32,000 nt of DNA, taken from Promethearchaeota archaeon. GTDB lineage: Archaea > Asgardarchaeota > Hermodarchaeia > Hermodarchaeales > Hermodarchaeaceae. The stretch lies in assembly GCA_048938295.1 (NCBI GenBank), contig JBHLMI010000010.1, forward strand, positions 30,001 to 62,000. The letters are read 5' to 3'. Below, in pieces: positions 3,094 to 30,634 of this stretch. Under the pieces are notes generated by a model, which ran no database searches, was not told the origin of the DNA, and saw nothing but the letters and a program-made list of their open reading frames with translations. The stretch's first letter is position 1; each line of letters starts with the position of its first letter. Both the position numbers and the translations under genes were made by a program.

Positions 3094-3185
3094 AATGGAA
3101 TCCCTTCTCGATAGCGTCTTCTCGAAAGCTTCAAAAGGTTTTGCCACCACCGCATCCACAGAAGTAGAACCCGAGGTTGTGGAAG

Positions 3186-4205
3186 ATGGATTTACGCGGC
3201 AGAGATATGATTACCATCCAAGAGTGGACGCGAGAAGAACTCGAAGCCGTTCTCGAATTTTCAAAAGAGCTGAAGAAGAAGACGAAGGCTGGAAAATCTC
3301 CTCACCTTTTGTCTGATAAGACCTTTTTTATGTTATTCTACAATACCAGCACGCGAACACGTGCGAGTTTTGAAGCCGCACTAACAGAACTTGGTGGGCA
3401 CGCTCAATTCCTTGAACCTGGTGCTATGCGTCTAGGTGAAGGTGAGAGTGTCAAAGACACTGCAAATACATTGGCTCGATACGGTCATGCCATCGGTATC
3501 CGTATCCTTGAAAAAGCAGTCGGCTATGTATATGGACGAGGAAACCAGGTATTACGTGAGTATGCCAAGTGGTCATCCATCCCTATCATCAATATGGCCG
3601 ATGACAAGTTTCATCCGTGCCAATCCCTTACTGACCTCATGACGGTACAGGAGAATTTTTCAAAAATTCAGGGCAAGAAATTCGTTTTCTCATGGGCATA
3701 TAGTCGCCATTCCCGTTCCTGGTGTAGTGTGCAGAGTGCAATACTGACCGCGACCCGGTTTGGAATGGATGTAACCCTTGCGCATCCTCCTGGCTTTGAA
3801 TTAGATCCCGAGGTTATGGACTGGTGCCATCAAAATGCCAATGAATCAAATGGTGGTTTTTCCATTACCAATGATATCAAGGAGGCCTATTCAGGGGCCC
3901 ATGTTGTCTATCCCCGATCATGGATGAGTGCCGAGTGCTCAGCGGTGGGCATTGATAAATGGGGTGAAGACCGCGAAGCCAAACTCCACGAGAAATATCG
4001 TGATTGGATCTGTAATTCTGAACTCATGGAACTGGCTAGCAAGGATGCAATCTATATGCATTGTCTCCCGGTCTTCCGAGGTGAAGAGGCGACAGATGAA
4101 GTCGTTGATAGCCCCCAAAGTGTCATCTTCGATCAAGCAGAGAACCGACTGCATCTACAGAAAGGACTGCTTTCACTCGTAATGAGTGATAAGAACCTGC
4201 TTTAA
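3186..4205 (+). CDS. Non-canonical transcarbamylase (AOTCase/YgeW-like clade), paralog 1
   Basis: Carbamoyl-phosphate motifs STRTR, HPCQ, HCLP and AENRLH. Acceptor region KKFVFSWAYS; no OTCase DxxxSMG. ATG 3186 with GAGGT RBS at 3173-3177. Confidence 0.9.
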   Translation: MDLRGRDMITIQEWTREELEAVLEFSKELKKKTKAGKSPHLLSDKTFFMLFYNTSTRTRASFEAALTELGGHAQFLEPGAMRLGEGESVKDTANTLARYGHAIGIRILEKAVGYVYGRGNQVLREYAKWSSIPIINMADDKFHPCQSLTDLMTVQENFSKIQGKKFVFSWAYSRHSRSWCSVQSAILTATRFGMDVTLAHPPGFELDPEVMDWCHQNANESNGGFSITNDIKEAYSGAHVVYPRSWMSAECSAVGIDKWGEDREAKLHEKYRDWICNSELMELASKDAIYMHCLPVFRGEEATDEVVDSPQSVIFDQAENRLHLQKGLLSLVMSDKNLL

Positions 4206-4214
4206 AAGCTTGAA

Positions 4215-5282
4215 TTATCGGGTTTTGGGTTCACCCATAATTGCCGCCATAATGGCCTTTTGCGCGTGAAGTCGATTTTCAGCTTCATCAAAGGCGATAC
4301 TCCAATTTCCATCGAGTACTTCATCAGCTACCTCGAATCCACGGTCGGCTGGTAAACAATGCATGTATTTGATATCCTTTGCACCAAGTTCCATCTTCTC
4401 AGGTGTAGTTATCCAATCTTTATTGGCGTCGAAAAGCTTCTGCGCCCCCTCCCAATCTTCTACAGGAGCTATAGGGGGAATATAATGCTTGCTTGTCCAG
4501 CATTTTGGATACACGTAATGTGCACCAGCAAAGGCTGCTTCCATGTCATTAGTGACCTCGAAGGAGCCGCCGTATTCTGCTACGTTCTTTTCACACATCT
4601 CAAGGATTTTGGGGTCGAGTTCGAAACCCTTCGGGTGTGCAAGGACAGTATCCATTCCCCATTTCGTTCCCATTAGAATTCCACTTTGGGGTACTGCAAG
4701 GGGTTTTTGCGTACTTGGGCTGTAAGCCCAACTCATAACGAACTTCTTGCCTTGAACTGTGCGTGAATGCTCTTGAATAGCCTGCATGTCGGCCATGGCT
4801 TGGCACGGATGGTAGACATCATCTTCCATGTTGATGATCGGAACCTCGGACCACTTGGCAAATTCTCGGAGGATGCGATGACCACGACCATAAATCCACT
4901 TTGCATGAGACCCGTATATGCGAATGGCGATCGCGTCACCCATACGGGCAAGCACTCGTGCCACATCCGAGATTCGCTCACTTGAATAGGCTTCTTCATC
5001 ATCTGGCAAAGCGGGACGATAGACATCCTGCGGTGAGAGGAAGTGGGCGTGGCCCCCCATTTGGGTCATACCCGCCTCAAAGGAGTTTCGCGTACGCAGG
5101 GATCGATTAAAGAATATCATGAACAGGGTTTGCCTGAGCAGATAGTCGTGTGGTTTTCGCGCTTTTTGAAGCTTTTTAATTTCAATTGCTGCGTCGATGA
5201 GCGTTTGCAGTTCTTCTTGGCTCCATTCTTGGATGGTCAACCAGTCACGACCATGATACTTTCCAACAATATCTGCACCCAT
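4215..5282 (-). CDS. Non-canonical transcarbamylase (YgeW/ArgF'-like), paralog 2
   Basis: SLRTR, HPCQ, HCLPAD and EAENRLH motifs. Loop SWAYSPSTQKPLAVPQS closely resembles E. coli YgeW TWAYSPSYGKPLSVPQG (recalled). GGTGA RBS. Confidence 0.9.
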   Translation of the reverse strand: MGADIVGKYHGRDWLTIQEWSQEELQTLIDAAIEIKKLQKARKPHDYLLRQTLFMIFFNRSLRTRNSFEAGMTQMGGHAHFLSPQDVYRPALPDDEEAYSSERISDVARVLARMGDAIAIRIYGSHAKWIYGRGHRILREFAKWSEVPIINMEDDVYHPCQAMADMQAIQEHSRTVQGKKFVMSWAYSPSTQKPLAVPQSGILMGTKWGMDTVLAHPKGFELDPKILEMCEKNVAEYGGSFEVTNDMEAAFAGAHYVYPKCWTSKHYIPPIAPVEDWEGAQKLFDANKDWITTPEKMELGAKDIKYMHCLPADRGFEVADEVLDGNWSIAFDEAENRLHAQKAIMAAIMGEPKTR

Positions 5283-5325: not shown

Positions 5326-6717
5326 TTAATCTCTTTGCCATCGACTTTGAATCTGCACGCCTGCTCGTTCAAGCAGTTGTTGTCCTCGTTCTCTAGCATT
5401 TTCAATGACCTTCTCTTCATCCAAGGTCATGAGTTTCCCTTCATGCACCAAGATTTGCCCGTTCACAATAGTGGTATGAACATTGAAGCCATTGGCAGCA
5501 TAGATAATGTTACTGACAGGATTGTAGGTGGGTGCAAGGTTCAGTTGGGTGGTGTCAATAAGCACTAAATCTGCCTTCTTACCAACCTCGATGCTTCCAA
5601 TGTCCTTTTCTAGCCCAAGGGCTTTTGCGCCATTAATGGTCGCCATTTCCAGCACTGTTTCTGCAGGCATCGTCAAGGGTTTTAGGGTTCGGGCTTTGTG
5701 GATTATAGCTGCAAGAAACATTTCCCGAAACATATCATAGGCATTATTACTTGGTCCACCATCACAACCTAAACAGACGTTGATTCCCGCTTCTAGCATT
5801 TCAGGAATAAGGGCAATGCCCGACGCTAGCTTGGCATTACTTGCAGGACAATGGCACATATGAGTTCCCGTCTCAACGTAAATCGGAAACTCCTCCGGAG
5901 TAATCCATACCCCATGAACCAAAACAACATTCTTTCCCATCATCCCCACATCCCGCGCAAACTCAGCTGGGGATTGGTTGAATTGCGATTTAGTGTACTC
6001 AACGTCCTCTTTCACTTCACCAAGATGCATGGTAATACCCATGTGGCGTTGCCGGGCTAGCTCTGCAACTCGGCGATATAATTCAGGACTCACAGCACCG
6101 GGAGTCCGCGCTCCCCACCAAATGAAAACACGCCCATCAGCTGCTCCCTGCCATTTATTATGCATGGACAAGGTTTCTGCGATGCATTCCTCAGGATCTT
6201 CAATCATCCCTTCATACATTATGGCTTCTTCATCTGCGTAACCCGTCCAATCCATGAAGAGCTTTGACAAACACCCGCGAATTCCAGTTCGTTCGACGAC
6301 CTGAGCGATTCCGTTCATTCCGTACCGTTTATGGATCATGCTTTCAAGAAAACTCGTCGTGCCAGATTTGAGCATCTCAGCAATGCACAACTCGGCACTG
6401 ACTTTCCCATCTTCGGGTGTGAAGTTCCCTTGCAACACCCAAACATAGTCTCGAAGCCAGGGAATAAGATCAACATCGTCTGCAGTCCCACGAATCAGTG
6501 CCTGTGCCAGATGTACGTGACAGTCAATGAGGCCTGGAATGATAATTTTCGCTTTTCCTGAAATTCGTGTTTCAGCACTGTATTGCTGTTTGATTTCATG
6601 GGATTTTCCAACAGCAATGATACGCTGATCTTCTATAACTATGGCTCCATCAGTAAGAATCCGGCGTTGGGCGTCCATTGTGATAATGGTTGCTTCGTCA
6701 ATAATCAAATCCGCCAT
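5326..6717 (-). CDS. Amidohydrolase-superfamily deaminase (MtaD/DadD/AtzA-like), substrate uncertain
   Basis: PGLIDCHVH (HxH), HLGE (HxxE), VHGVW, HCPASNAKLASG, GCDG and GSIEVGKKADLV. ATG 6717 with GGTG RBS. Confidence 0.88.
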   Translation of the reverse strand: MADLIIDEATIITMDAQRRILTDGAIVIEDQRIIAVGKSHEIKQQYSAETRISGKAKIIIPGLIDCHVHLAQALIRGTADDVDLIPWLRDYVWVLQGNFTPEDGKVSAELCIAEMLKSGTTSFLESMIHKRYGMNGIAQVVERTGIRGCLSKLFMDWTGYADEEAIMYEGMIEDPEECIAETLSMHNKWQGAADGRVFIWWGARTPGAVSPELYRRVAELARQRHMGITMHLGEVKEDVEYTKSQFNQSPAEFARDVGMMGKNVVLVHGVWITPEEFPIYVETGTHMCHCPASNAKLASGIALIPEMLEAGINVCLGCDGGPSNNAYDMFREMFLAAIIHKARTLKPLTMPAETVLEMATINGAKALGLEKDIGSIEVGKKADLVLIDTTQLNLAPTYNPVSNIIYAANGFNVHTTIVNGQILVHEGKLMTLDEEKVIENARERGQQLLERAGVQIQSRWQRD

Positions 6718-6820
6718 CGGAATCAGCACCGCTTTAATCTTTGATTCTTCTTAAGGATTGGACTTTGCAGTTAATAAAGCCACCAGCAGGTTTTTGAATT
6801 TTGTAGAGAAAATTCGGGCT

Positions 6821-7108
6821 ATGCATGTTGTCGTACGGACAATTGGACCCTATACGGAACAATTCGGCTTTCAGCAACTTACCGTGCACTTCAAGGGACG
6901 GACCGTGCATGATCTTTTAAACCAGCTCTGCGAGGAACGGGGTACTAAATTCTGCAACACCGTCTTTACCGAAGAAGGCCAATTACGTCGCTATATCAAG
7001 GTTCTTATCAATGGTCGCGGGCTTCATGTTCTGGAGGGGCTAGATACACCACTGACAGATGGAGATGTTGTGGCCTTATTTCCACCTGTAGCAGGTGGCG
7101 CCTATTAA
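6821..7108 (+). CDS. MoaD/ThiS (SAMP-like) ubiquitin-fold sulfur carrier with C-terminal GG-AY extension
   Basis: VLINGR...L..LTDGDVVALFPPVAGG followed by AY-stop. Start set at ATG 6821. Confidence 0.85.
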   Translation: MHVVVRTIGPYTEQFGFQQLTVHFKGRTVHDLLNQLCEERGTKFCNTVFTEEGQLRRYIKVLINGRGLHVLEGLDTPLTDGDVVALFPPVAGGAY

Positions 7109-8436
7109 CTTTTGATACCAAGTTTTTCCCACAAGGTCGGCACGACGCCCTCAAGAGCCTTTTCAACAACTTCAGATTTTACCGACACAACCTGATGGTT
7201 TTCAACTACTTGCTTCCCGTTCACGAAAACATGCTCAACATTATTTGCAGTACAGCCATAGACGATATACCCGTATACTCCATCTGGCAAAATCGGGGTA
7301 ACCCGGGGATTGGGGTGTAGCATAACTAAATCCGCTAGTTTTCCAGGTTCAATGGATCCTAATCTGTCTCCAAGGCCATAGGCTTGGGCCCCATTGATAG
7401 TTGCCATCTCTATCACCTGTTGTGGAGTTGTAACACGTGTATCAAGGTGGTGTACTTTATGGATGAGATAGGCGGTGCGGATATTCTCGATGGTATCGAA
7501 GATGAACCCATCATTTCCTAGACACACTGGAATTCCCAGCTCGTACATCTCCTTCACGGGGCTGACTCCGACAGCATTGTTCATATTACTCATGGGATTA
7601 TGAGCGACCTTTGCCCCGCTAGCCTTGATTAGCTTCAATTCATCTTGGTTCACGTGTACGCAATGAGCAAGAACCACGTCGGGTCCGAGTACTCCTAGAT
7701 CGAAGAGCCGTTCGACGGTTCGTTTATCATACCGTTCGATATTGTGGTAGACGTCAATGAGCCCTTCACTTGTATGTATGGTAAGAGGTGCAGAGAGTCT
7801 GTCGGCTTGTTCTCGTGTTTTCTGTATTAACTCGTCACTAAGGGTAAAGGACGCGTGTAAACTGTACATTCCCCAAAGTAGGTCATTTGGAGTTTTTTGG
7901 AGTTTTTTGAGAAAGCGAATATTTTCCTTAAGTCCTCGTTCTCCTTCTTCTTTCGAGTTGCGTTCGGTTGCTTCAAATGCTAGAATTCCTCGCATTCCCG
8001 CTTGGGTGACGCCTTTGGCTATCGTATCTAGTACATTTTCAATGGAACCAGGCCCAGAATATGTGTCGGCAAAACAGGTCGTTCCGCCGCGAATAAACTC
8101 GTAACAGGACGCAAGGGCACTTGCGTAGGCGTCCTCATTGACGAATGCCGAATCCACCTTCCACCAAATTCGATCGAGAATCTGAAGAAAATCAGTTGTC
8201 GGTTTAATATCCAGTGGGGCGCCACGGAGCATGATACCGTATAAGTGGGTATGCCCACAAATGAATCCAGGCAGGACCATCCGACCTGTTCCATCAACCA
8301 CAAGGTCAGCTGATTCTTTAATTCTAGTATCAATTGCGGCAATCTTCGAACCATCGATAAGAAGATCTGAGTTCTTCAGAACTCGGCGTTGGGCGTCCAT
8401 TGTGACAATCATTGCGTTTTTAATTAATACACGCAT
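7105..8436 (-). CDS. ssnA: SsnA-family amidohydrolase
   Basis: PGFICGHTHLY, IWWKVDSA, AFEATERN, ENIRF, HASFTLSD, HTSE and SNMNNAVG match recalled E. coli SsnA motifs (LWWRLDRA, CFETTDRN, ENIRF, HAPFTVPD, SNMNNHVG). ATG 8436 with GGTG RBS; the stop overlaps the moaD stop (TTAA 7105-7108). Confidence 0.82.
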   Translation of the reverse strand: MRVLIKNAMIVTMDAQRRVLKNSDLLIDGSKIAAIDTRIKESADLVVDGTGRMVLPGFICGHTHLYGIMLRGAPLDIKPTTDFLQILDRIWWKVDSAFVNEDAYASALASCYEFIRGGTTCFADTYSGPGSIENVLDTIAKGVTQAGMRGILAFEATERNSKEEGERGLKENIRFLKKLQKTPNDLLWGMYSLHASFTLSDELIQKTREQADRLSAPLTIHTSEGLIDVYHNIERYDKRTVERLFDLGVLGPDVVLAHCVHVNQDELKLIKASGAKVAHNPMSNMNNAVGVSPVKEMYELGIPVCLGNDGFIFDTIENIRTAYLIHKVHHLDTRVTTPQQVIEMATINGAQAYGLGDRLGSIEPGKLADLVMLHPNPRVTPILPDGVYGYIVYGCTANNVEHVFVNGKQVVENHQVVSVKSEVVEKALEGVVPTLWEKLGIKS

Positions 8437-8483
8437 CAGAAATCGCACCACGCATGTTATTGTAGATGAATATGATAATCGAG

Positions 8484-8530: not shown

Positions 8531-9037
8531 ATGGACAAATCAGCTCATAAGGTTCTCGTCGTTGACCCGGAAAAGTGTACAGGCTGTGGAATCTGTACCC
8601 TCGTTTGTTCTTTTCGTCATAACCAGGAATATAATCCCTCCAGGGCGCTTCTAACAGTTATCCGTAATGAAAAAAGCGGAATCAACATCCCAGTTATCTG
8701 TCAGCATTGCGAGACTCCCTTATGTATGGAAAGTTGCCCTGCTGATGCCATCTATCGCGACGCTGAAACCAATGCGGTTTGTATCAACCAAGAAAATTGT
8801 ATTGGTTGCCACCAATGCCTAATTGCCTGTCCGTTTGGTGGGATTCATATTGACGTATCTGATGGTCGCACCGTCAAATGTGATTTGTGTGAAGGGTATG
8901 CGATGTGTGCACAATTTTGCCCCAGAGAGGCTTTGTTGTATTTGGAACCGAGTGAATTGACTGATCGGCTTCGGCAAAAGGGTGTCAAGAAAGCCGCTGA
9001 ATATCTCCAGATTATAACAGGAGGCGCGAAAAAATGA
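8531..9037 (+). CDS. 4x[4Fe-4S] electron-transfer subunit (AOR partner, DmsB/HycB-like)
   Basis: Four Cys clusters (CTGCGICTLVC; CQHCETPLCMESC; CIGCHQCLIAC; CDLC...CAQFC). ATGA overlap with the AOR gene. Confidence 0.92.
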   Translation: MDKSAHKVLVVDPEKCTGCGICTLVCSFRHNQEYNPSRALLTVIRNEKSGINIPVICQHCETPLCMESCPADAIYRDAETNAVCINQENCIGCHQCLIACPFGGIHIDVSDGRTVKCDLCEGYAMCAQFCPREALLYLEPSELTDRLRQKGVKKAAEYLQIITGGAKK

Positions 9038-10971
9038 GTAAGGATAATGCTTACTATGGTTACGCTGGACGAATTGCAGAAGTTGATTTGACTGAATCCA
9101 AAGTCAAAATTACACCCATGGACCGTGATTTTGCCAGAAATTATCTCGGTGGAACCGGGTTTGCCTCGCGCATATTATGGGATCGTGTCAAGCCAGGTTC
9201 AGATCCACTTGATCCGCAGAATCCGATTATCTTTGGGGTGGGTCCGGTTACAGGTGCCTTTTTCTCTCCTTCAGGACGGTATATGGTTGCCTTCAAATCT
9301 CCCTTAACAGGAGTGTGGGGTGAAGCTCATTGTGGAGGGCATTGGGGACCTCAGCTCAAATATGCTGGATTTGACATGCTAATCATTCAAGGCAAAGCGC
9401 CTAAGCCAGTTTACCTTATGGCACACGACAAAACCGTGACCATCCATGATGCCACTCATCTGTGGACCCAAGACACTACTGAAACCACGGACCAAATCAA
9501 ACAGGAACATGGAGACAATGACATCGAGGTTGCCTCCATTGGAATAGCGGGTGAGAATCTGGTCCGATACGCGGCAATTATTGGCTCTTATTATCGAGCT
9601 GCCGGTCGTGCAGGGGGTGGAGCTGTGATGGGAAGCAAGAATCTCAAAGCCATTGCAGCGCGAGGTCTTGGAGGCGTACTGGTTGCCCAACATGGGAAGT
9701 TCCTCGCTGCAGCACGAAAAGCCTTTGAACAGACCACGACTGGAAAATGGGGAGAAATGAACGAAGAATCCCTCGGCAAGTACGGGACAACTAACCTTGT
9801 AAATGCAATTGGAGAGATTGGTCGACTCCCCACGAAGAATCATACAACCGGCATATTTCCAGAGGCAGATGCCATCGGACCAGAAATTATACGACAGAAG
9901 TATCGAACAAGCCGGGAAGCCTGCTTTGGGTGTGCGCTCCAGTGCAAATATACATCTCAAGTGAAATCAGGGCCTTACCAAGTGAAGACTGGAGGACCAG
10001 AGTATGAAACTCTCATGGCCTTTGGCAGCAATTGCCTTAACAGTAACGTGGAATCGATTCTGTATGCAAACCAGCTCTGCAATCGCTACGGTTTAGACAC
10101 AATAAGCACAGGCTGCACCATCGCCTTCTTAATGGAAGCAGCTGAACACAACCTCGTTACATCAAAAGATGCTGACGGACTCGACCTCTCATGGGGAAAC
10201 GATGAAACAATCATTGTACTCATTGAAAAAATTGCGCACCGCCAAGGCATAGGTAACCTACTCGCTGAAGGCTCCATGCGAGCTGCCCAAAAAATAGGAA
10301 AAGGTGCAGAACAGTTCGCGATTCATGTTAAAGGAATGGAAGCCTCGGGCCAAGATCCCCGACCTCAACAAAGTGTAGGCTTAACCTACGCCACCAATGT
10401 TCGTGGTGCTGATCACCTTCGAAGTCTAAGCTGCTATGAAGAACTCGGTTTCCCTGATGTCGCCATAGATCGATTCGGTGAGGAACACGCCTCCGAAGTG
10501 ATGGATCTACATAGCACCACCTACAAGGGCCACCTTATCAAAGACCAAGAAGACCTTTATGTGCTCGTTGATAGCGTAATTCTCTGTAAATACGGCTCTA
10601 TGTGGCCACCTATCTACTATTTCGATATCGTTGCGCAAATGCTTGCTCCCCTTACCGGCTTCCAAGAGTTTGGGGACATCAAGGAACTACGCAAAATCAC
10701 TGAACGAATCAGTAATCTTCGACGATGCTTCAATGTCCGGGAAGGCATAACTCGTAAGAACGAGCAACTCCATCCACGGTTTACAGAAGAACCGATGCCA
10801 GAAGGTCCAGCCAAAGGACAAGTCTGTGACCTCGAACCCATGCTCAATGAATACTATGAAGTCCGCAACTGGACAAAAGATGGTCTTCCAAAACGCTCCG
10901 AGCTAATCCGTTTAGGCCTAGACGATGTAGCCGATGAACTCGCAAAAATGGGTAAGTTGGTGGAAGAATAA
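9034..10971 (+). CDS. Tungsten-containing aldehyde:ferredoxin oxidoreductase-family protein (AOR-1)
   Basis: SPLTG, AGEN, GRAGGGAVMGSKNLKAI, CFGCALQC, GPEYET, GLDTIS, RGADH and distal Cys (DSVILC). 645 aa. Confidence 0.93.
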   Translation: MSKDNAYYGYAGRIAEVDLTESKVKITPMDRDFARNYLGGTGFASRILWDRVKPGSDPLDPQNPIIFGVGPVTGAFFSPSGRYMVAFKSPLTGVWGEAHCGGHWGPQLKYAGFDMLIIQGKAPKPVYLMAHDKTVTIHDATHLWTQDTTETTDQIKQEHGDNDIEVASIGIAGENLVRYAAIIGSYYRAAGRAGGGAVMGSKNLKAIAARGLGGVLVAQHGKFLAAARKAFEQTTTGKWGEMNEESLGKYGTTNLVNAIGEIGRLPTKNHTTGIFPEADAIGPEIIRQKYRTSREACFGCALQCKYTSQVKSGPYQVKTGGPEYETLMAFGSNCLNSNVESILYANQLCNRYGLDTISTGCTIAFLMEAAEHNLVTSKDADGLDLSWGNDETIIVLIEKIAHRQGIGNLLAEGSMRAAQKIGKGAEQFAIHVKGMEASGQDPRPQQSVGLTYATNVRGADHLRSLSCYEELGFPDVAIDRFGEEHASEVMDLHSTTYKGHLIKDQEDLYVLVDSVILCKYGSMWPPIYYFDIVAQMLAPLTGFQEFGDIKELRKITERISNLRRCFNVREGITRKNEQLHPRFTEEPMPEGPAKGQVCDLEPMLNEYYEVRNWTKDGLPKRSELIRLGLDDVADELAKMGKLVEE

Positions 10972-12155
10972 TGACAGTCAAATTAGATGTTGAAATTGCT
11001 GGTATTCCCCTCCGTAATCCCGTTCTAACCGCTGCAGGGCCAACGAGCCGAGATGCTGAAACCCTGTTAGAAGCAGCGCGTGGCGGAGTGGGAGGTTTGG
11101 TGGCTAAAACTATCAGCGTCAAACCTGCCAAAGTTCCCCGTCCGAATATGCAAACCCTTGACCGTGGTAAGAGTCAATGGCTTCTGGCAACAGCCATGCA
11201 ACACCATATTGTCCACTTGGAACGGATCAGTGTTCGAGGAGCATATGGATTACTTAACCATGAATTATGGAGCGATAAGCCCTACGAAAAGTGGCTCAAA
11301 CATGAATATCCGAAGGCAAAGGAAGCAGGTCTGTCTCTCATCGCATCCATGGGTTATACTCCCGAGGAACTAGCAAAACTCGCACCCTTAGTGGAGAAAG
11401 CGGGAGTTGATGGTATTGAGTTCAGCACCCATTACATCGAATCTGATCCTAAAGTCTTCAACGAAGTCGCGAAGACATTGAAAGAAGCTGTCGATATTCC
11501 CGTCTTTGCGAAAATGAGCCCCCATGTCAAAGACCTGACAGTCTTCGTGAAAGCAGTGGAAAAACATGTCGACGGATTTGTAGCTATCAATACTCTTGGG
11601 CCCTGCCTCCACATCGACATTGAAACGGGCAAACCACTCCTCGGTGGGCCAGGAGGTGTTGGATGGCTCTCAGGACCTGCCATCAAACCCCTGGCAGTTC
11701 GTTGTGTTGCTGATATTGCCCGTGGCACTTCAAAACCTGTCGTTGGTGTTGGAGGAGTTAGCACCGGTGCCGATGCCATTGAGTTCGTCATGTGCGGTGC
11801 ATCAGCTGTCCAAGTATGTACTGCTGCTATCCTCGAAGGTAACTCAGTGTATGGGCGTATCGCTACTGAAATGGCGAACTACCTCAAATCTCATGGGCAT
11901 GATTCGCCACTAGATGTCCGTGGCATCTCCCTCAAACACCTCCCCACTGATACCCTCCGCATCGAAAGTCTCCCACCAACTGTCGACGAAGAAGCCTGCT
12001 CGGGTTGTGGGCTATGCAACAAATCCTGTATCTACTCCGCCATTGCCGTCAACCCAGACACATCCAAAGCACAAGTGGATACAAATCTCTGTTATGGCTG
12101 CGGGGTCTGCGTCAGCATTTGTCCACACCGCGCACTATCCTTCCAGACTAATTAA
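10971..12155 (+). CDS. Dihydropyrimidine dehydrogenase PreA/DHODH-like FMN protein with C-terminal 2x[4Fe-4S]
   Basis: TAAGP, VAKT, LNHELWS, FAKMSP, AINT, LSGPAIKP, GVGGV and VQVCTA motifs. C-terminal CSGCGLCNKSC and CYGCGVCVSIC. TAATG overlap with AOR-1. Confidence 0.85.
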   Translation: MTVKLDVEIAGIPLRNPVLTAAGPTSRDAETLLEAARGGVGGLVAKTISVKPAKVPRPNMQTLDRGKSQWLLATAMQHHIVHLERISVRGAYGLLNHELWSDKPYEKWLKHEYPKAKEAGLSLIASMGYTPEELAKLAPLVEKAGVDGIEFSTHYIESDPKVFNEVAKTLKEAVDIPVFAKMSPHVKDLTVFVKAVEKHVDGFVAINTLGPCLHIDIETGKPLLGGPGGVGWLSGPAIKPLAVRCVADIARGTSKPVVGVGGVSTGADAIEFVMCGASAVQVCTAAILEGNSVYGRIATEMANYLKSHGHDSPLDVRGISLKHLPTDTLRIESLPPTVDEEACSGCGLCNKSCIYSAIAVNPDTSKAQVDTNLCYGCGVCVSICPHRALSFQTN

Positions 12156-12173
12156 TAGGATGAACTCAAATCC

Positions 12174-12461
12174 ATGACTAAAAAACCTCAAGTTACCGTT
12201 CGCATGTTCACAAGCCTCCGTGCCCTCACCGGAGTCAGAGAAATCCAACTAGAAGCCAAAGATGTCCAAGAAGTCATAGATATACTAGGTAACAAGTTTG
12301 GGAACAAATTTAACAAAATGGTCCTCGAAGCTGATGGATCACTCAAGTCCTACTTCCATGTTCTTGTCAATGGACGCCACGTCAGACTACAACAAGGATT
12401 AGCAACACCACTTACTGAAGGAGACGTTGTTGCAATTTTCCCGCCAATAGGTGGCGGGTAA
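12174..12461 (+). CDS. moaD: MoaD/ThiS (SAMP1-like) sulfur carrier
   Basis: VLVNGR...LTEGDVVAIFPPIGGG-stop, with a free C-terminal GG. Last gene of the AOR-1 operon. Confidence 0.88.
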   Translation: MTKKPQVTVRMFTSLRALTGVREIQLEAKDVQEVIDILGNKFGNKFNKMVLEADGSLKSYFHVLVNGRHVRLQQGLATPLTEGDVVAIFPPIGGG

Positions 12462-13298: not shown

Positions 13299-13976
13299 CT
13301 ACCGTTGAGCGAGTATCCTTGTTACTCCAGGCGAAACGTGTGCCGTGTTTTTGTCCCAGTCTACAACGACTAATTTCCGGAGTTCAAACCACCGTAGATA
13401 GTTTCGGACTTTGGATTCGGTGATGTGTAAGGTTTGAGCAAGGTCTGAAAAGCTCGTTTTCCCCGTTGCGCCGAAAGCTCGTAGGATGGGGCTCCATTCA
13501 TAAACAATGAGCATGGCCATGGCGGGGAGGAGTTTATCCAAGTTGTAATCAGTGGTGTTGCTAATTGGAATTACAGGAACGCCGACCATGAAACTCAAGT
13601 CATGGCGGATTCTTTCTGGTGTTCGAGCTGCACGAAGATCTTGTTTATTTGCGGCAACAATACAAGGAACATTAGGGAGGAGATCACTGATCTCTGTCCA
13701 AATATAGCGTGCTTCAGCATCTCCATCGGGTTTGCTCGCGTCGACAACAAAGAGGATTCCGTCAGCTCCCTCGGAAATAATTCGTCGTAACACCTTGAAT
13801 CGGGCTAGCCCAGGGGTTCCAAATAGCCGAATTGGTATTCCAAAGACTTCAGCGACACCGTGGTCAAGACCAACAGTTGTACCATTAGCTTGAATATTAA
13901 TTATGTTTCCCTTGGCTAGGTGCTGAATGAGTGTGCTTTTTCCTGAGAGGTGTGGACCTGTTACAAGCACTTTCAT
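13299..13976 (-). CDS. MglA/CvnD-type small GTPase fused to a C-terminal winged-helix domain
   Basis: G1 GPHLSGKST, G2 TTVGLD, G3 FGTPG, G4 NKQD. C-terminal SFSDLAQTLHITESKVRNYLRWFELRKLV has an HTH/wHTH pattern. Confidence 0.82.
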   Translation of the reverse strand: MKVLVTGPHLSGKSTLIQHLAKGNIINIQANGTTVGLDHGVAEVFGIPIRLFGTPGLARFKVLRRIISEGADGILFVVDASKPDGDAEARYIWTEISDLLPNVPCIVAANKQDLRAARTPERIRHDLSFMVGVPVIPISNTTDYNLDKLLPAMAMLIVYEWSPILRAFGATGKTSFSDLAQTLHITESKVRNYLRWFELRKLVVVDWDKNTAHVSPGVTRILAQR

Positions 13977-14102: not shown

Positions 14103-16025
14103 TTATTCGGGTAATTCTACACCTGCTTTTGTCAGGTCTATAATAACATCGTTCAAGCTTAATCGATGTAACGTTCGCTTAGTCGGAAGCCCATCTTCAA
14201 CTCGCCAGCCACGTACCTCGTAGTATTCGTCGAGCATTTGTTCCAGTTCAACGACTTGGCCCTTCGATGGTCCTTCTGGGGCAGGAGTCTTGGTTAGGCG
14301 GCTTGGGAGTGAATCATCTTTCCGGCGAATTCCTTCTCGGACATTGAAACCGCGATTGAGATTCACAATTCGTTCACCAATTGTTCGCAACTGTTTCTCG
14401 GTGATTGAGTGACCTACAGTAACGTCAAAGGCTTTGACAATGTCTTCATAAAAAAGAACTGGTGGAATCAATGTACCGTATTTGCAGACGCCCAATGATT
14501 CAACAACCGCACAGAAATCCTCGTTTTCTTTTACCATGATACCTTTATATTTGGGATCAAGGCGGTCGCCGATTTCTGGGAGATACTCAGTTCCATAACG
14601 GATTCCAATTTCCTCATCGAATCCCACTTCATCAAGAACAGGGAATGCATAAAGGTGGTCAGCCCCCCGTGCTGCAGTGGCGGTGGCCAGTCCCATGGAT
14701 TTTTGGGCTCGGGATTCCTGCCCTGCGATTTCTTGCTTCTTGCAGTGCATAACGAACTTCTCAGTCCCACGTCCAATGCGTTGGGCTGCTCGATAACTCC
14801 CCTCAGCTAAGATGTCGCCAAATCCTTCACGCTTAGCAATCATGTGGATGAGTGTGATGATGGACTCATGGTTGCCCCAGCTTAGATCTATCCCATCGGT
14901 GTCTTTTGCGGTGATGAGGCCTTCATCCCAGGCCTCCATCGCCCAGCTAATCGTTGCCCCTGTAGAGATAGTATCTAAACCGTACAAGTTGCTGAGGTGG
15001 TGGCCATAAAGGATTGATTCGAGATTATCGTTTCCACATCGGCTTCCCATAGCTGACTGGGTTTCGTACTCCGGAGCGCCACCACAATAGGCATAAGGTC
15101 CAGTTTTGACGCACGTATAGCGACCACACCGTTGCAGACAGGCAAAATCCGCTCGGGGTTTCACTAAATAGTTCTTTTTAATCGCTTCCCCGCTGATTTT
15201 CTGATATTCTGCGAATACTCCAGAGCGCATATTATAACTCGGTAGTCGCCCGATTTCTTGCATTAATTCTACTAGATTGGTCGTGCCATACATCGCCCGA
15301 CTGGCGGTAAATGGGCTTGCTAGCATTTTCTGGTGCAGTTCTTCTATCACTTCGAGGTAGCGATCTGGCTTGGCAATGGGAATATCCTGTCCACCTCGAA
15401 CCGCCACAGCCTTAAGGTGCTTGCTCCCTGCTACGGCTCCAATACCTGACCGTGCGGCAGCCCGGTCATAATCGTTTATAATGGCCGCAAACCGGACAAG
15501 GTTCTCTCCTGCTTGGCCAATGCAAGAGACACGAAGATCTCGGTCATTATGCATTTCTTTTATCATGTCTTCGGTTTCGGCGGTGTTGCGGCCCCATAGT
15601 TTCTTTGCATCGAGTAATCGAGCAGTTCCATTATCAATAAACAGATACCTCGGGGTCTCTGATCGACCTGTGACAGTAATAGTGTCATACCCTGCAAATT
15701 TCAGTTCCGGTCCCCAATGTCCGGCAGAATGGGCTTCACCAAAGATGCCTGTGAGTGGTGATTTCGCAGCAACCACATACCGAGAAGCTTGAGGCCACAG
15801 GGTTCCTGTGAAGGGTCCGGTTGCCCAAAGAAGAATGTTTTCTGGACTCAGTGGGTCTGTAGTGGGTCCTACCCGATCATACATGATTCGTGAAGCAAAT
15901 CCTTGGCCCCCAAGATACATGAGAGCAAATTCTTTGTCGATTGGAACCGGTTTACATGTTCCCTTTGTCATATCTACGTGTAGATGCTGTCCTGCATACC
16001 CACCGAGTTTCCCTTTCTTCACCAT
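14103..16025 (-). CDS. Tungsten-containing AOR-family oxidoreductase (AOR-2)
   Basis: SPLTG, AGENLV, GSKHLKAV, APEYET, GLDTIS, RGADH and ESLGVC. The Fe-S motif reads DFACLQRC. GAGGTG RBS overlaps the upstream stop. Confidence 0.92.
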   Translation of the reverse strand: MVKKGKLGGYAGQHLHVDMTKGTCKPVPIDKEFALMYLGGQGFASRIMYDRVGPTTDPLSPENILLWATGPFTGTLWPQASRYVVAAKSPLTGIFGEAHSAGHWGPELKFAGYDTITVTGRSETPRYLFIDNGTARLLDAKKLWGRNTAETEDMIKEMHNDRDLRVSCIGQAGENLVRFAAIINDYDRAAARSGIGAVAGSKHLKAVAVRGGQDIPIAKPDRYLEVIEELHQKMLASPFTASRAMYGTTNLVELMQEIGRLPSYNMRSGVFAEYQKISGEAIKKNYLVKPRADFACLQRCGRYTCVKTGPYAYCGGAPEYETQSAMGSRCGNDNLESILYGHHLSNLYGLDTISTGATISWAMEAWDEGLITAKDTDGIDLSWGNHESIITLIHMIAKREGFGDILAEGSYRAAQRIGRGTEKFVMHCKKQEIAGQESRAQKSMGLATATAARGADHLYAFPVLDEVGFDEEIGIRYGTEYLPEIGDRLDPKYKGIMVKENEDFCAVVESLGVCKYGTLIPPVLFYEDIVKAFDVTVGHSITEKQLRTIGERIVNLNRGFNVREGIRRKDDSLPSRLTKTPAPEGPSKGQVVELEQMLDEYYEVRGWRVEDGLPTKRTLHRLSLNDVIIDLTKAGVELPE

Positions 16026-16031
16026 TATAAT

Positions 16032-16523
16032 TCACCTCTTTTCTGATTCCTCTTCCACTCGAAGTTCGTCAAGGAGATTTCCACATTCGTGCTGAATCAC
16101 TTTCTGCTGCTTCAAAGCTGCCAATTGTTCATCGGTGAGAATCTGTAAGGTATCAACTGGGCAATATCTCGTGCAAAAGCCACATGCGATACATTTGATG
16201 GCTTTTTGCGTGTCGGGATGTAAGAAGATGGCTCCAAATGGGCATGCTTCGACACAAGCCCCACACCCACGGCATTTCTTCGAATCCACAATGACAATAC
16301 CTTTCCGGTTCTTCTGCAGGGCTTCTTCAGGACACGCTTCGATGCACCAAGCTTGATCGCAATTTCGACACGCTACAACAACATCAAGTCCTGGATTGAC
16401 TCGGCGTACCCGGTTCCGCGACTTCTTCGGATTGATGGTCTTTTCCCAATGTAAACTACATACTGCTTCACAAATCCGACAACCAACACACACGGTAGGG
16501 TCCGCATAGAGAAATTGTCGCAT
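16032..16523 (-). CDS. 4x[4Fe-4S] electron-transfer subunit (AOR-2 partner)
   Basis: CVGCRICEAVC, CRNCDQAWCIEAC, CRGCGACVEAC and CIACGFCTRYC. GAGGTG RBS. Confidence 0.92.
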   Translation of the reverse strand: MRQFLYADPTVCVGCRICEAVCSLHWEKTINPKKSRNRVRRVNPGLDVVVACRNCDQAWCIEACPEEALQKNRKGIVIVDSKKCRGCGACVEACPFGAIFLHPDTQKAIKCIACGFCTRYCPVDTLQILTDEQLAALKQQKVIQHECGNLLDELRVEEESEKR

Positions 16524-20274: not shown

Positions 20275-20649
20275 CTATGATTGTAAAATGGATTCGATTT
20301 GGCTACTGTACCGTTTCATAACAAGGAAAATCATTCCTAAGTTTGCGCTTTTCTTTACCAAGGATGTGAGAATAGCATTTTCACCAGCGCCTTTCAAAAT
20401 AATATAGCCGTTTTCCGCTTCAACTGTTATCTGCATAAGCTTGCCACGGGGAATCTCTGTCAAAGCGCGTTCTGCAACGCCAAGAAGCGCGGCCGTCATA
20501 GCTGCCACTATAGCCTCATTAACGGTCTGTGGCATTGCCGCTACTATGGGCAAACCCTGTGCGGTAACAATTGCACTGGCTTCAATACCCGGTGTCGTAC
20601 TCTCCATTTGACGAAGGAGATCTTGAAGATTCTTCGCAGTAGCCGACAT
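20275..20649 (-). CDS. Roadblock/LC7 (MglB-like) domain protein
   Basis: 124 aa. GIEASAIVTAQGLPI, AAMTAALLGVAERAL and ITVEAENGYIIL follow the roadblock pattern. Confidence 0.9.
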   Translation of the reverse strand: MSATAKNLQDLLRQMESTTPGIEASAIVTAQGLPIVAAMPQTVNEAIVAAMTAALLGVAERALTEIPRGKLMQITVEAENGYIILKGAGENAILTSLVKKSANLGMIFLVMKRYSSQIESILQS

Positions 20650-29261: not shown

Positions 29262-30083
29262 TTGACCGTTCACAGCTTCTATGTCGTCGGATTACGCGAA
29301 GGTTTTCCACTTTATAGTCGAAAGTGGTCTCAATCCGATGTCGATAGTGCCCTGCTTTCCGGATTCTTAGCCAGCATGGAACACATGGCCCAACAAGTAG
29401 CTGCACAACACGTCAACGTCGTGAACATGAAAGACCGCCGGTTCTTCTTCCAAATCGACGAACAAAACGGATTACTCCTTGTCTTCATCACCGACGTCAG
29501 TGAAAGTTCCGCCCGTTTCCGTAAATACCTAGGTATCCTCAACAATAAATTCGTGAAAATGTTCAAAAAACAACTTGAAGAGCTCCACGAAGATGGTACC
29601 ACTGACACAAAACTCTTCAACAGCTTTGATGAATTCATCGATGACCTTGTTCTCACCTGGTGGATGGGGGAAGCCACCGTGTCTGCCGCCAAGGTAATGG
29701 ACGTGTTTGAAGTATTCACGCTCTTCTATAACACCATTATCCAACGGTTTTTCACAGATGTCACACGCCGAACCTATGGCAAGCAAATACAGCAACTCTT
29801 TGAAACGAAAATGGAGAAAATCCCGGCTCTTACAGGTATCAAAATCGACAAAACTGGTGTCCTCACCTACGAATCCATTGACCCCCAACAAGTCAAATAC
29901 ACACAATTTCGGAAGGTACTTTTCGACATCTTCCATGAGTTAATGGTGCTCACACGTAAAACCCTGCCCAAACAAACCTACTACTCCCTTGTCTTCGAAC
30001 ACATTAGCCCCCTCATCCGCACCGAACAAAGGCGGATGAAAACTTACTCTCTAACAGAAAAAATCGTGATGGAAATCCTATGA
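29262..30083 (+). CDS. Asgard-type longin-like domain protein with unknown helical C-terminal domain
   Basis: N-terminal pattern FYVV...GFPLYSR...DSALLSGFLASM...VVNMKDRRFFF...LLVFITD...L..KFV.MF typical of longin folds. TTG start at 29262 with GAGGT RBS (uncertain; frame open to 29103). Confidence 0.72.
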   Translation: MTVHSFYVVGLREGFPLYSRKWSQSDVDSALLSGFLASMEHMAQQVAAQHVNVVNMKDRRFFFQIDEQNGLLLVFITDVSESSARFRKYLGILNNKFVKMFKKQLEELHEDGTTDTKLFNSFDEFIDDLVLTWWMGEATVSAAKVMDVFEVFTLFYNTIIQRFFTDVTRRTYGKQIQQLFETKMEKIPALTGIKIDKTGVLTYESIDPQQVKYTQFRKVLFDIFHELMVLTRKTLPKQTYYSLVFEHISPLIRTEQRRMKTYSLTEKIVMEIL

Positions 30084-30634
30084 GTAACCCTACCGAAAGC
30101 ACCACCCACCCCATCGCCACAAAACGACCCTACACCCACATCGCCAAAGCCGTCGTCGTCGGCGACGCCGCTGTTGGAAAAACAAGTCTCCTCGTCCGCT
30201 ACGTCAAAGGCATCTTCAACCCCACTTATATTCTCACCATCGGTGTTGCTTTTCATGTCAAAGATATTGTCATCGGACAGAATGTTCTCAGGCTACAGGC
30301 ATGGGACACAGGGGGTCAGGAGCGGTTTGGCCCAATTCGTCAGCTCTATTATCGTGGAGCCAAGGGCGTTCTGTTAGTGTATGACCGGTCAAATTCTGAT
30401 TCCTTCAACCGAATTGATTATTGGTTGAATGAAGTGAAACGAGGTTGTGGGGATGTGCCTTTGGTTCTCATTGCGAACAAGTCAGACCTCGCTGAAAAAA
30501 TCGAATCCGAAGAAGGACGGAAAAAAGCAGAGGAGCACTCGATGGTGTTCGTTGAGACCAGTGCGAAGGACGATAAGAATGTTGATTTCGCGTTCTCGGA
30601 ATTGGCAAGGATAATACTGAATCAGAGTGCTTAG
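30080..30634 (+). CDS. Rab-like small GTPase
   Basis: GDAAVGKTS, TIGVAF, WDTGGQERF, YYRGA, LLVYD, NKSD and ETSAK. No C-terminal Cys. ATGA overlap with the longin gene. Confidence 0.93.
   Translation: MSNPTESTTHPIATKRPYTHIAKAVVVGDAAVGKTSLLVRYVKGIFNPTYILTIGVAFHVKDIVIGQNVLRLQAWDTGGQERFGPIRQLYYRGAKGVLLVYDRSNSDSFNRIDYWLNEVKRGCGDVPLVLIANKSDLAEKIESEEGRKKAEEHSMVFVETSAKDDKNVDFAFSELARIILNQSA

Follow-up and report, generated by a model that had tools for sequence, protein, structure and literature searches.

The window analyzed here (32,000 nucleotides; positions 30,001 to 62,000 of contig JBHLMI010000010.1, assembly GCA_048938295.1) comes from a Promethearchaeota archaeon whose 2.5-Mb metagenome-assembled genome (MAG) is 91.6% complete; near-identical proteins carry the labels Hermodarchaeota and Hodarchaeota. 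On its forward strand it carries a four-gene operon in which an oxidoreductase of the AOR (aldehyde:ferredoxin oxidoreductase) family and its iron-sulfur (FeS) subunit are followed by a flavin reductase resembling PreA of dihydropyrimidine dehydrogenase (DPD). PreT-less, Fe-S-fed homologues of DPD and multi-subunit tungsten-containing oxidoreductases (WORs) are each already known; what is new is the conserved link of an archaeal WorSL/AorAB-type tungsten module to an FMN subunit like that of DPD or dihydroorotate dehydrogenase (DHOD), within a purine-type gene island. The best single explanation, if still a tentative one, is that the WorSL-type module and the FMN reductase form one complex, in which the W site would feed ring reduction. 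Gene anatomy, cofactor-binding motifs, linkage and pathway context are shown here; that the proteins assemble, which way the electrons run and what either site acts on are inferred.

Operon structure and cofactor motifs

The operon consists of the following genes:

8531..9037, forward: WorS/AorA-type iron-sulfur subunit, 168 aa, 4 × [4Fe-4S] (Fer4_11-type dicluster and related Pfam domains)
9034..10971, forward: predicted tungsten AOR-family catalytic subunit AOR-1, 645 aa, clade A (AFOR_N, AFOR_C, AOR tree)
10971..12155, forward: ‘PreA-like’ DPD/DHOD-like FMN plus 2 × [4Fe-4S] reductase, 394 aa (DHO_dh and C-terminal Fer4)
12174..12461, forward: MoaD/SAMP-like small protein, 95 aa, ThiS fold, last gene of the operon (TIGR01687)

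The stop codon of the FeS-subunit gene overlaps the AOR-1 start (ATGA, 9034–9037), the AOR-1 and PreA-like genes are joined by a second overlap (TAATG, 10969–10973), and a spacer of 18 nt separates the PreA-like gene from the MoaD-like gene. An earlier note on this DNA, made from the letters alone, had described a four-gene operon at 8531–12461, and its open reading frames (ORFs), domains and both overlaps were all confirmed. The FeS subunit has 16 Cys that are invariant among 45 orthologues and therefore four [4Fe-4S] clusters; its best solved relatives are AorA (8c0z_C, 127 bits) and WorS (9mqx_E, 123 bits). The MoaD-like protein scores 75 bits against TIGR01687 (moaD_arch; cut-off 49.5) and its C-terminus, ...PPIGGG, ends in Gly-Gly.

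AOR-1 matches PF02730 (AFOR_N, 3.2e-78) and PF01314 (AFOR_C, 1.5e-126) over its full length. The best solved relatives are WorL of Acetomicrobium mobile (9mqx_D, 444 bits), Pyrococcus furiosus AOR (1aor, 424 bits) and AorB (8c0z, 382 bits), and the alignments with 1aor and 9mqx_D are full-length. Aligned to 1aor, E325 and the His of an RGADH motif (Arg 457, Asp 460, His 461) match catalytic Glu313/His448 (P. furiosus numbering), while C297/C300/C304 and the Cys of a DSVILC motif correspond to the cluster ligands. The pterin-binding D-x-x-G-L-D/C motifs are present, with YGLDTIS seen in the same alignment, and the catalytic Glu/His, pterin motifs and cluster Cys are all invariant throughout AOR clade A. 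By domains and motifs AOR-1 is a member of the AOR/WOR family; tungsten content and aldehyde oxidation are predicted.

A Cys-less relative of PreA without a PreT partner

The PreA-like protein combines a DHO_dh domain (1e-33) with a C-terminal 2 × [4Fe-4S] domain containing eight invariant Cys; this is its only ferredoxin domain, and it carries no Pyr_redox or FAD-binding domain. The FMN lysines (K46, K181) and the Asn/Asn/Thr substrate contacts (N96, N207, T208) are kept, and a structure model (pLDDT 74) best matches chains of pig DPD, followed by DHODB. The best NCBIfam match is PreA (NF006183), at 191 bits and below the equivalog cut-off of 335, and identity to E. coli PreA is 27%. The catalytic-Cys loop (N-x-S-C-P) is deleted in the whole PreA-like family and replaced by E-[FYC]-S-x-H-Y, of which S-x-H-Y is invariant. 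Given the sub-cut-off score and the deleted Cys loop, orthology with PreA was rejected, and the protein forms a separate branch of the DPD/DHOD superfamily that is archaeal and lacks the Cys; the description in the earlier note as a PreA-like protein with FMN and 2 × [4Fe-4S] is correct in fold and clusters. E. coli YgfK, used as a BLAST query against the genome, matched only GltD-like proteins (through its GltD part) and not the PreA-like protein, so the two reductases are not close relatives. An insertion of ~30 aa after strand 2 is found in Hermod, Bathy and Thermoprotei forms, and the genome holds a separate true PyrD-PyrC-PyrK cluster elsewhere.

The FMN TIM barrel and C-terminal 2 × [4Fe-4S] domain are shared with E. 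coli PreT-PreA and mammalian DPD, which differ in having the PreT component and the Cys loop; in the window no PreT is present, as already noted from the sequence, and a genome search with PF14691 (Fer4_20) matches only two other contigs (C33 and C8). The accompanying statement that bacterial DPD needs PreT is, however, outdated. PydAc of Clostridium chromiireducens, a DPD homologue without FAD/NADPH domains, reduces uracil with ferredoxin, and one PydAc variant has a ferredoxin domain encoded by a separate ORF (PMC7332683). In the reductive uric acid pathway, 2,8-dioxopurine is dearomatized by YgfK or by PreT-less UacX (Q181U4), the yanthine reductase of C. difficile, only if coupled to the hydrolase SsnA; the UacX/YgfK and SsnA genes co-localize, and HyuA, YgeW/YqeA, YgeY and YgeX act next (PMC12507026). 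NAD(P)H independence, as originally proposed for the window's reductase, is plausible given these ferredoxin-run, PreT-less homologues (PMC7332683, PMC12507026). Like the PreA-like protein, both PydAc and UacX have FMN and ferredoxin domain(s) with the FAD/NADPH part neither in the protein nor adjacent, and both are driven by low-potential Fe-S donors, a likeness drawn from domains and context. UacX also works with, and its gene lies near that of, SsnA, and the window's operon is likewise divergent to an SsnA-like gene. The window's protein differs from both in its single ferredoxin domain, its S-x-H-Y loop and its linkage to a tungsten AOR.

An AorABC-like arrangement and a proposed mechanism

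The best solved relatives of the window's AOR and FeS subunits belong to AorABC of Aromatoleum aromaticum (type N, 8c0z) and WorABCSL of A. mobile (9mqx). Both enzymes use their small subunits as an Fe-S wire onto which a flavin ‘plug’ docks; for the window's proteins such an assembly is predicted. AorABC has the same order as the window, i.e. a 4 × [4Fe-4S] subunit, AOR, a third redox subunit and MoaD-like gene(s); its operon reads aorA-aorB-aorC-aorD/E, with the window's MoaD-like gene in the position of aorD/aorE (PMC6365974). The AorC slot, which holds a FAD/NAD(P) subunit in AorABC, is filled in the window by the gene for the PreA-like FMN plus 2 × [4Fe-4S] protein. Nor is the window's third subunit, being DPD/DHOD-like, the bifurcating BfuABC module. 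More generally, subunits of the WorS/AorA type are wire-forming polyferredoxins able to dock a third ‘plug’ module, WORs of type N and type BF are reported from Bacteria only, and the majority of 92 WOR clades are without a known role (PMC12318220). In the literature searched, nothing relevant turned up on AOR combined with DPD or DHOD or on SsnA of archaea, and no conserved archaeal WorSL operon with a DPD/DHOD-like FMN subunit in a purine-type island was met with.

The operon may thus encode an AorABC-like tungsten enzyme in which the AorC-type FAD/NAD(P) output subunit has been replaced by the PreA-like protein. The W site would oxidize a substrate, presumably an aldehyde because the Glu/His site of AOR-1 is canonical. 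Electrons would then pass through the AOR [4Fe-4S] cluster to the four clusters of the small subunit, and on to the two clusters and finally the FMN of the reductase, which, having no NAD(P)H module, would take low-potential electrons via iron-sulfur clusters. With NAD(P)H the ring reduction is uphill, but such electrons from the W site could drive it. The FMN subunit would carry out the dearomatizing reaction in an archaeal route of reductive nucleobase breakdown, with purines as the likeliest substrates. It would act directly ahead of the SsnA-like ring hydrolase, much as YgfK or UacX precedes SsnA in bacteria, and the MoaD-like protein presumably serves maturation of the tungsten cofactor.

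Conservation of the linkage between AOR and PreA-like genes

A profile-seeded scan of 185,579 species genomes for the PreA-like gene gave 80 archaeal loci, spanning Hermod-, Thor-, Baldr- and Heimdallarchaeota, Bathyarchaeia, Nitrososphaeria, Korarchaeia-type Thermoproteota, Geothermarchaeota, Hadarchaeota and Desulfurococcaceae. An AOR is found somewhere in 63 of the 80 loci; it is no more than 3 kb from the PreA-like gene in 58 and directly upstream on the same strand in 36. At ~nine AORs per 2.5 Mb, a few percent would be expected by chance. A GltD-like gene is present in a single locus (1/80), at the locus edge and adjoining a PyrK-like gene. Adjacency of AOR and PreA-like genes in the absence of preT, for which the earlier note had suggested a survey, therefore recurs strongly, also when approached from the AOR: among 301 Asgard genomes, each of the 30 best AOR-1 relatives is followed on its own strand, at a distance of no more than ~4 kb, by a PreA-like gene. 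Orthologues of the PreA-like gene are present in 85 of these 301 genomes, all of them in families f1, f5, f6, f14 and f17, and AOR-1 matches of at least 53% identity come from families f1, f6, f14 and f17.

The linkage survives rearrangement. Nitrososphaeria, Kor and Geotherm loci have the order FeS-AOR-PreA-FeS-(MoaD)-AOR, while in Baldr-type loci AOR/FeS is divergent from SsnA-Amh2-PreA-FeS-MoaD-AOR, and in Thor loci the pairing persists despite ~2 kb of inserted unrelated genes. The start/stop overlaps are retained across several phyla. In a PreA tree Hadarchaeota and Desulfurococcaceae, which lack the AOR, are the first to branch, and three changes (one gain and one or two losses) account for the linkage. 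The pairing is one old, well-kept association rather than many independent ones.

AOR clades and a second AOR pair

The genome holds nine AOR paralogues. In a tree of 108 AORs, those linked to PreA-like genes form one supported group with three sub-clades, and this genome's other six paralogues fall outside it. AOR-1 belongs to clade A, the upstream type; the downstream type is clade B; and AOR-2 is a member of clade C, encoded with its own FeS partner on the reverse strand of the window:

14103..16025, reverse: AOR-2, clade C (AFOR_N, AFOR_C; 48% identical to AOR-1)
16032..16523, reverse: second WorS-type iron-sulfur subunit, AOR-2 partner (Fer4 families; kept with the clade C AOR in related loci)

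In many loci a single PreA-like gene is surrounded by two or three distinct AOR/FeS pairs. In all 96 AORs of the three PreA-linked clades an Asp directly precedes the catalytic His, at the position of Cys447 in P. furiosus AOR, and the genome's other six paralogues vary here; this Asp is a possible signature of the substrate of the subfamily. The first [4Fe-4S] Cys ligand is changed to Asp in AOR-2 (D293-x2-C-x3-C) and in 30 of 31 clade C members, which suggests an Asp-ligated or 3Fe cluster in clade C.

Neighboring genes and pathway context

Upstream of the operon the window carries a set of genes resembling those of nucleobase degradation:

7105..8451, reverse: SsnA-like amidohydrolase, divergent from the operon (SsnA is the top NCBIfam match; best match in the genome to E. 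coli SsnA)
6758..7108, forward: second ThiS/MoaD-like ORF, with an internal ATG as probable true start (ThiS Pfam, 9.5e-14)
5326..6729, reverse: deaminase-type amidohydrolase, like GuaD, 8-oxoguanine deaminase or 5′-deoxyadenosine deaminase (best match in the genome to E. coli GuaD)
4215..5282, reverse: carbamoyltransferase, YgeW-like/N-acetylornithine carbamoyltransferase-like (OTCace_N, OTCace; 32% identical to E. coli YgeW)
3177..4205, forward: second carbamoyltransferase, tail to tail with the first (OTCace_N, OTCace; 34% identical to E. coli YgeW)

The SsnA-like protein is 30% identical to E. coli SsnA and scores below both family cut-offs (372 bits against 444 for TIGR03314 and 351 against 455.5 for NF005540). 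SsnA-like genes are found in 31 of the 80 loci with the window's protein as query and in 30 with E. coli SsnA, and directly adjoin the PreA-like gene in Hadarchaeota and Desulfurococcaceae. The deaminase-type family is present in 31 loci, although every NCBIfam match of the window's member lies under its cut-off. The two carbamoyltransferases (3177–5282) are the genome's best matches to E. coli YgeW and may phosphorolyze two ureido groups in turn; that at 4215..5282 exceeds the cut-off for N-acetylornithine carbamoyltransferase (NF003384) by ~4 bits (292.6 against 288). Other genes found across the 80 loci are HyuA-like (38), YgeW-like (16) and carbamate kinase (5 to 7, according to the query used), and one Desulfurococcaceae locus adds PALP and M20 genes. 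Elsewhere in this genome a HyuA-like gene lies on contig C27 (37.5%) and carbamate kinases on C8 and C49, the latter rejected as a pathway member since it belongs to an arginine deiminase cluster; matches to YgeX and YgeY are only weak.

The SsnA-, HyuA-, GuaD- and YgeW-like neighbors mark the island as most likely serving the reductive breakdown of nucleobases; purines are the probable substrates predicted from these genes, and pyrimidines a less likely alternative. The link to heterocycles made in the earlier note is borne out by the SsnA-, GuaD- and YgeW-like genes of the window, which point to nucleobase degradation. Much the same gene types, SsnA-like, GuaD-like and two YgeW-like, flank the window's operon as are found in the E. 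coli cluster xdhD-ygfM-ygfK-ssnA-hyuA-ygeW-ygeX-ygeY-yqeA. In contrast to this 2,8-dioxopurine cluster, however, no enzyme of the xanthine dehydrogenase (XDH) family was found, the reductase is not YgfK-like, and AOR/FeS pairs are added.

Several features of individual loci were also observed. The second ThiS/MoaD-like ORF of the window, between two amidohydrolase genes in a position conserved in Hermod-type loci, ends in ...GGAY, so that its Gly-Gly would have to be processed at the C-terminus. An ABC transporter with a binding protein of the Bmp/PnrA type (purine nucleoside receptor family) is encoded just upstream of FeS-AOR-PreA in L028:76-4894 and in seven related Kor/Nitrososphaeria/Bathy loci. 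In two Thorarchaeota loci (L046:13653-19734 and L051:17858-19331) a HyuA-like amidohydrolase directly precedes an FeS-AOR pair of clade C, which is followed by MvhD/FlpD-ferredoxin genes and a hydrogenase-small-subunit-like gene. Among the 80 loci, only one from Desulfurococcaceae (L093:12351-16185), which lacks an AOR, has a trio of XDH type (YgfM-, Fe-S- and Mo-subunit-like) in the island.

Alternative explanations

The interpretation as a single complex is partly supported: adjacency and the AorABC-like gene order agree with it, but no fusion involving AOR or the FeS subunit was found. A prediction for the FeS subunit with the PreA-like protein, run without controls, gave a score of 0.00 and is counted neither for nor against binding. 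Several observations weigh against the complex. A Rosetta-stone search among longer relatives recovered no AOR-PreA or FeS-PreA fusion (weak evidence), the only longer PreA-like relatives being GltD-DHOD fusions (32–35% identity); the simple one-donor model fails to explain loci with multiple AOR/FeS pairs per PreA-like gene; and, given the single origin on the PreA tree, the many loci are not independent events. In Thor loci ~2 kb of unrelated genes (zf-PARP, DUF234) separate the AOR from the PreA-like gene, and in the basal Hadarchaeota and Desulfurococcaceae the PreA-like/SsnA-like pair has no AOR or FeS gene nearby, which implies that the reductase does not need an AOR. Nor is an aldehyde known from the bacterial reductive purine pathway. 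The missing fusions, the split Thor loci and the AOR-less pairs would also suit an arrangement with no dedicated complex, in which an ordinary aldehyde:ferredoxin oxidoreductase and a PydAc/UacX-like reductase share free ferredoxin as carrier and owe their co-transcription solely to a common role in one fermentation. PydAc does run on free ferredoxin (PMC7332683), and with nine AOR paralogues in the genome reduced ferredoxin derived from aldehydes could be a general currency. Exchange through free ferredoxin nevertheless seems unlikely: a specific AOR clade always accompanies the PreA-like gene (30 of 30 when approached from the AOR) and has the same phyletic pattern, start/stop overlaps are kept in several phyla, the PreA-like gene sits in the slot of the bound AorC subunit, and subunits of the WorS/AorA type are known to dock a third module (PMC12318220).

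The main alternative, somewhat unlikely in our judgment, gives the island's AORs a different role: instead of donating electrons, they would use tungsten to do the work of the molybdenum hydroxylases XdhD/DOPDH, with the purine ring itself as substrate. An AOR might, for example, dehydroxylate urate to 2,8-dioxopurine or hydroxylate other purines, with the PreA-like reductase dearomatizing the product, and the W and FMN sites may share the FeS subunit as an electron entry or exchange point. In the bacterial pathway the step of YgfK/UacX has to be immediately preceded by an enzyme of the XDH family (PMC12507026), and the XDH-family domain PF02738 was found neither in this genome nor in any of ~27 other Asgard genomes with the island. 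XDH-family genes are, conversely, present in six of eight genomes with an AOR-less island, including the Desulfurococcaceae locus with the trio inside it. Up to three AOR clades share one island, often beside cyclic amidohydrolases, a multiplicity that fits ring chemistry better than electron donation, and the clade-specific Asp before the catalytic His in all 96 island AORs also agrees with it. However, no enzyme of the AOR family is known to hydroxylate or dehydroxylate N-heterocycles, and AOR-1 is closest to broad-range aldehyde-oxidizing AORs and keeps their Glu/His site. Eight AOR-linked Thermoproteota genomes hold XDH-family genes as well, making the pattern partial and confounded by phylogeny, and the XDH absences are weakened by MAG incompleteness; the complementary distribution of XDH and AOR is thus suggestive and is not accepted as proof. 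An extension that we consider improbable is a self-contained, electron-balanced purine-dearomatizing machine, in which AOR/FeS pairs of clades A, B and C would be purine hydroxylases and dehydroxylases wired by polyferredoxins to one PreA-like ‘plug’. Electrons set free by ring hydroxylation would go straight into dehydroxylation and the reduction of the ring, with neither NAD(P)H nor free ferredoxin taking part. If true, such chemistry would be new for the AOR family, and the assembly would represent a novel kind of WOR nanowire.

The PreA-like protein could also be a normal NAD(P)H-dependent DPD subunit that uses a GltD-like protein encoded elsewhere as PreT, and the genome does hold two GltD-family genes, those detected with PF14691. 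The protein on C33 (476 aa) is 32% identical to E. coli PreT but NfnB-like (526 bits to 4ylf_B), and its gene adjoins another AOR plus MgtE genes; that on C8 is an 836-aa fusion with NuoG-like Fe-S domains, encoded beside genes of the BcrAD/HgdB type. Neither type is linked to the PreA-like gene in any lineage, and a GltD-like gene is near the PreA-like gene in just the one locus described above. Together with the PreA score under its cut-off and the missing catalytic Cys loop, this makes a conventional NAD(P)H-dependent enzyme highly improbable. The earlier note had considered a cognate preT elsewhere in the genome; GltD-family genes exist, but in other contexts, and a partner in trans is unlikely. 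The C33 arrangement (L006:5622-8998, reverse) is a separate observation: a third AOR paralogue is directly followed by the NfnB-like GltD gene with no NfnA gene alongside, and the pair may represent an AOR equipped with an output subunit linked to NAD(P).

Significance

If the three-protein enzyme is real, it would be a fourth architectural type of multi-subunit WOR and the first archaeal one with a flavin output module, coupling a very low-potential oxidation directly to the thermodynamically hard dearomatization of a nucleobase. Whether or not a complex is formed, the conserved island suggests purine fermentation by sediment archaea of the Asgard, Bathyarchaeia, Nitrososphaeria-related and Korarchaeia-related groups. 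Such a route would relate to the gut-bacterial pathway described in 2025, here built with tungsten enzymes and yielding ATP via carbamoyl phosphate. A testable function is also offered for a well-defined AOR subfamily and for the Cys-less DPD/DHOD branch.

Other genes of the window

Asgard-typical genes unrelated to the operon are also present in the window, encoding small GTPases of the Ras/Arf type (13299–13976 and 30080–30634) and a Roadblock/LC7 protein (20275–20649). The window also encodes TFIIB and GGGP synthase.

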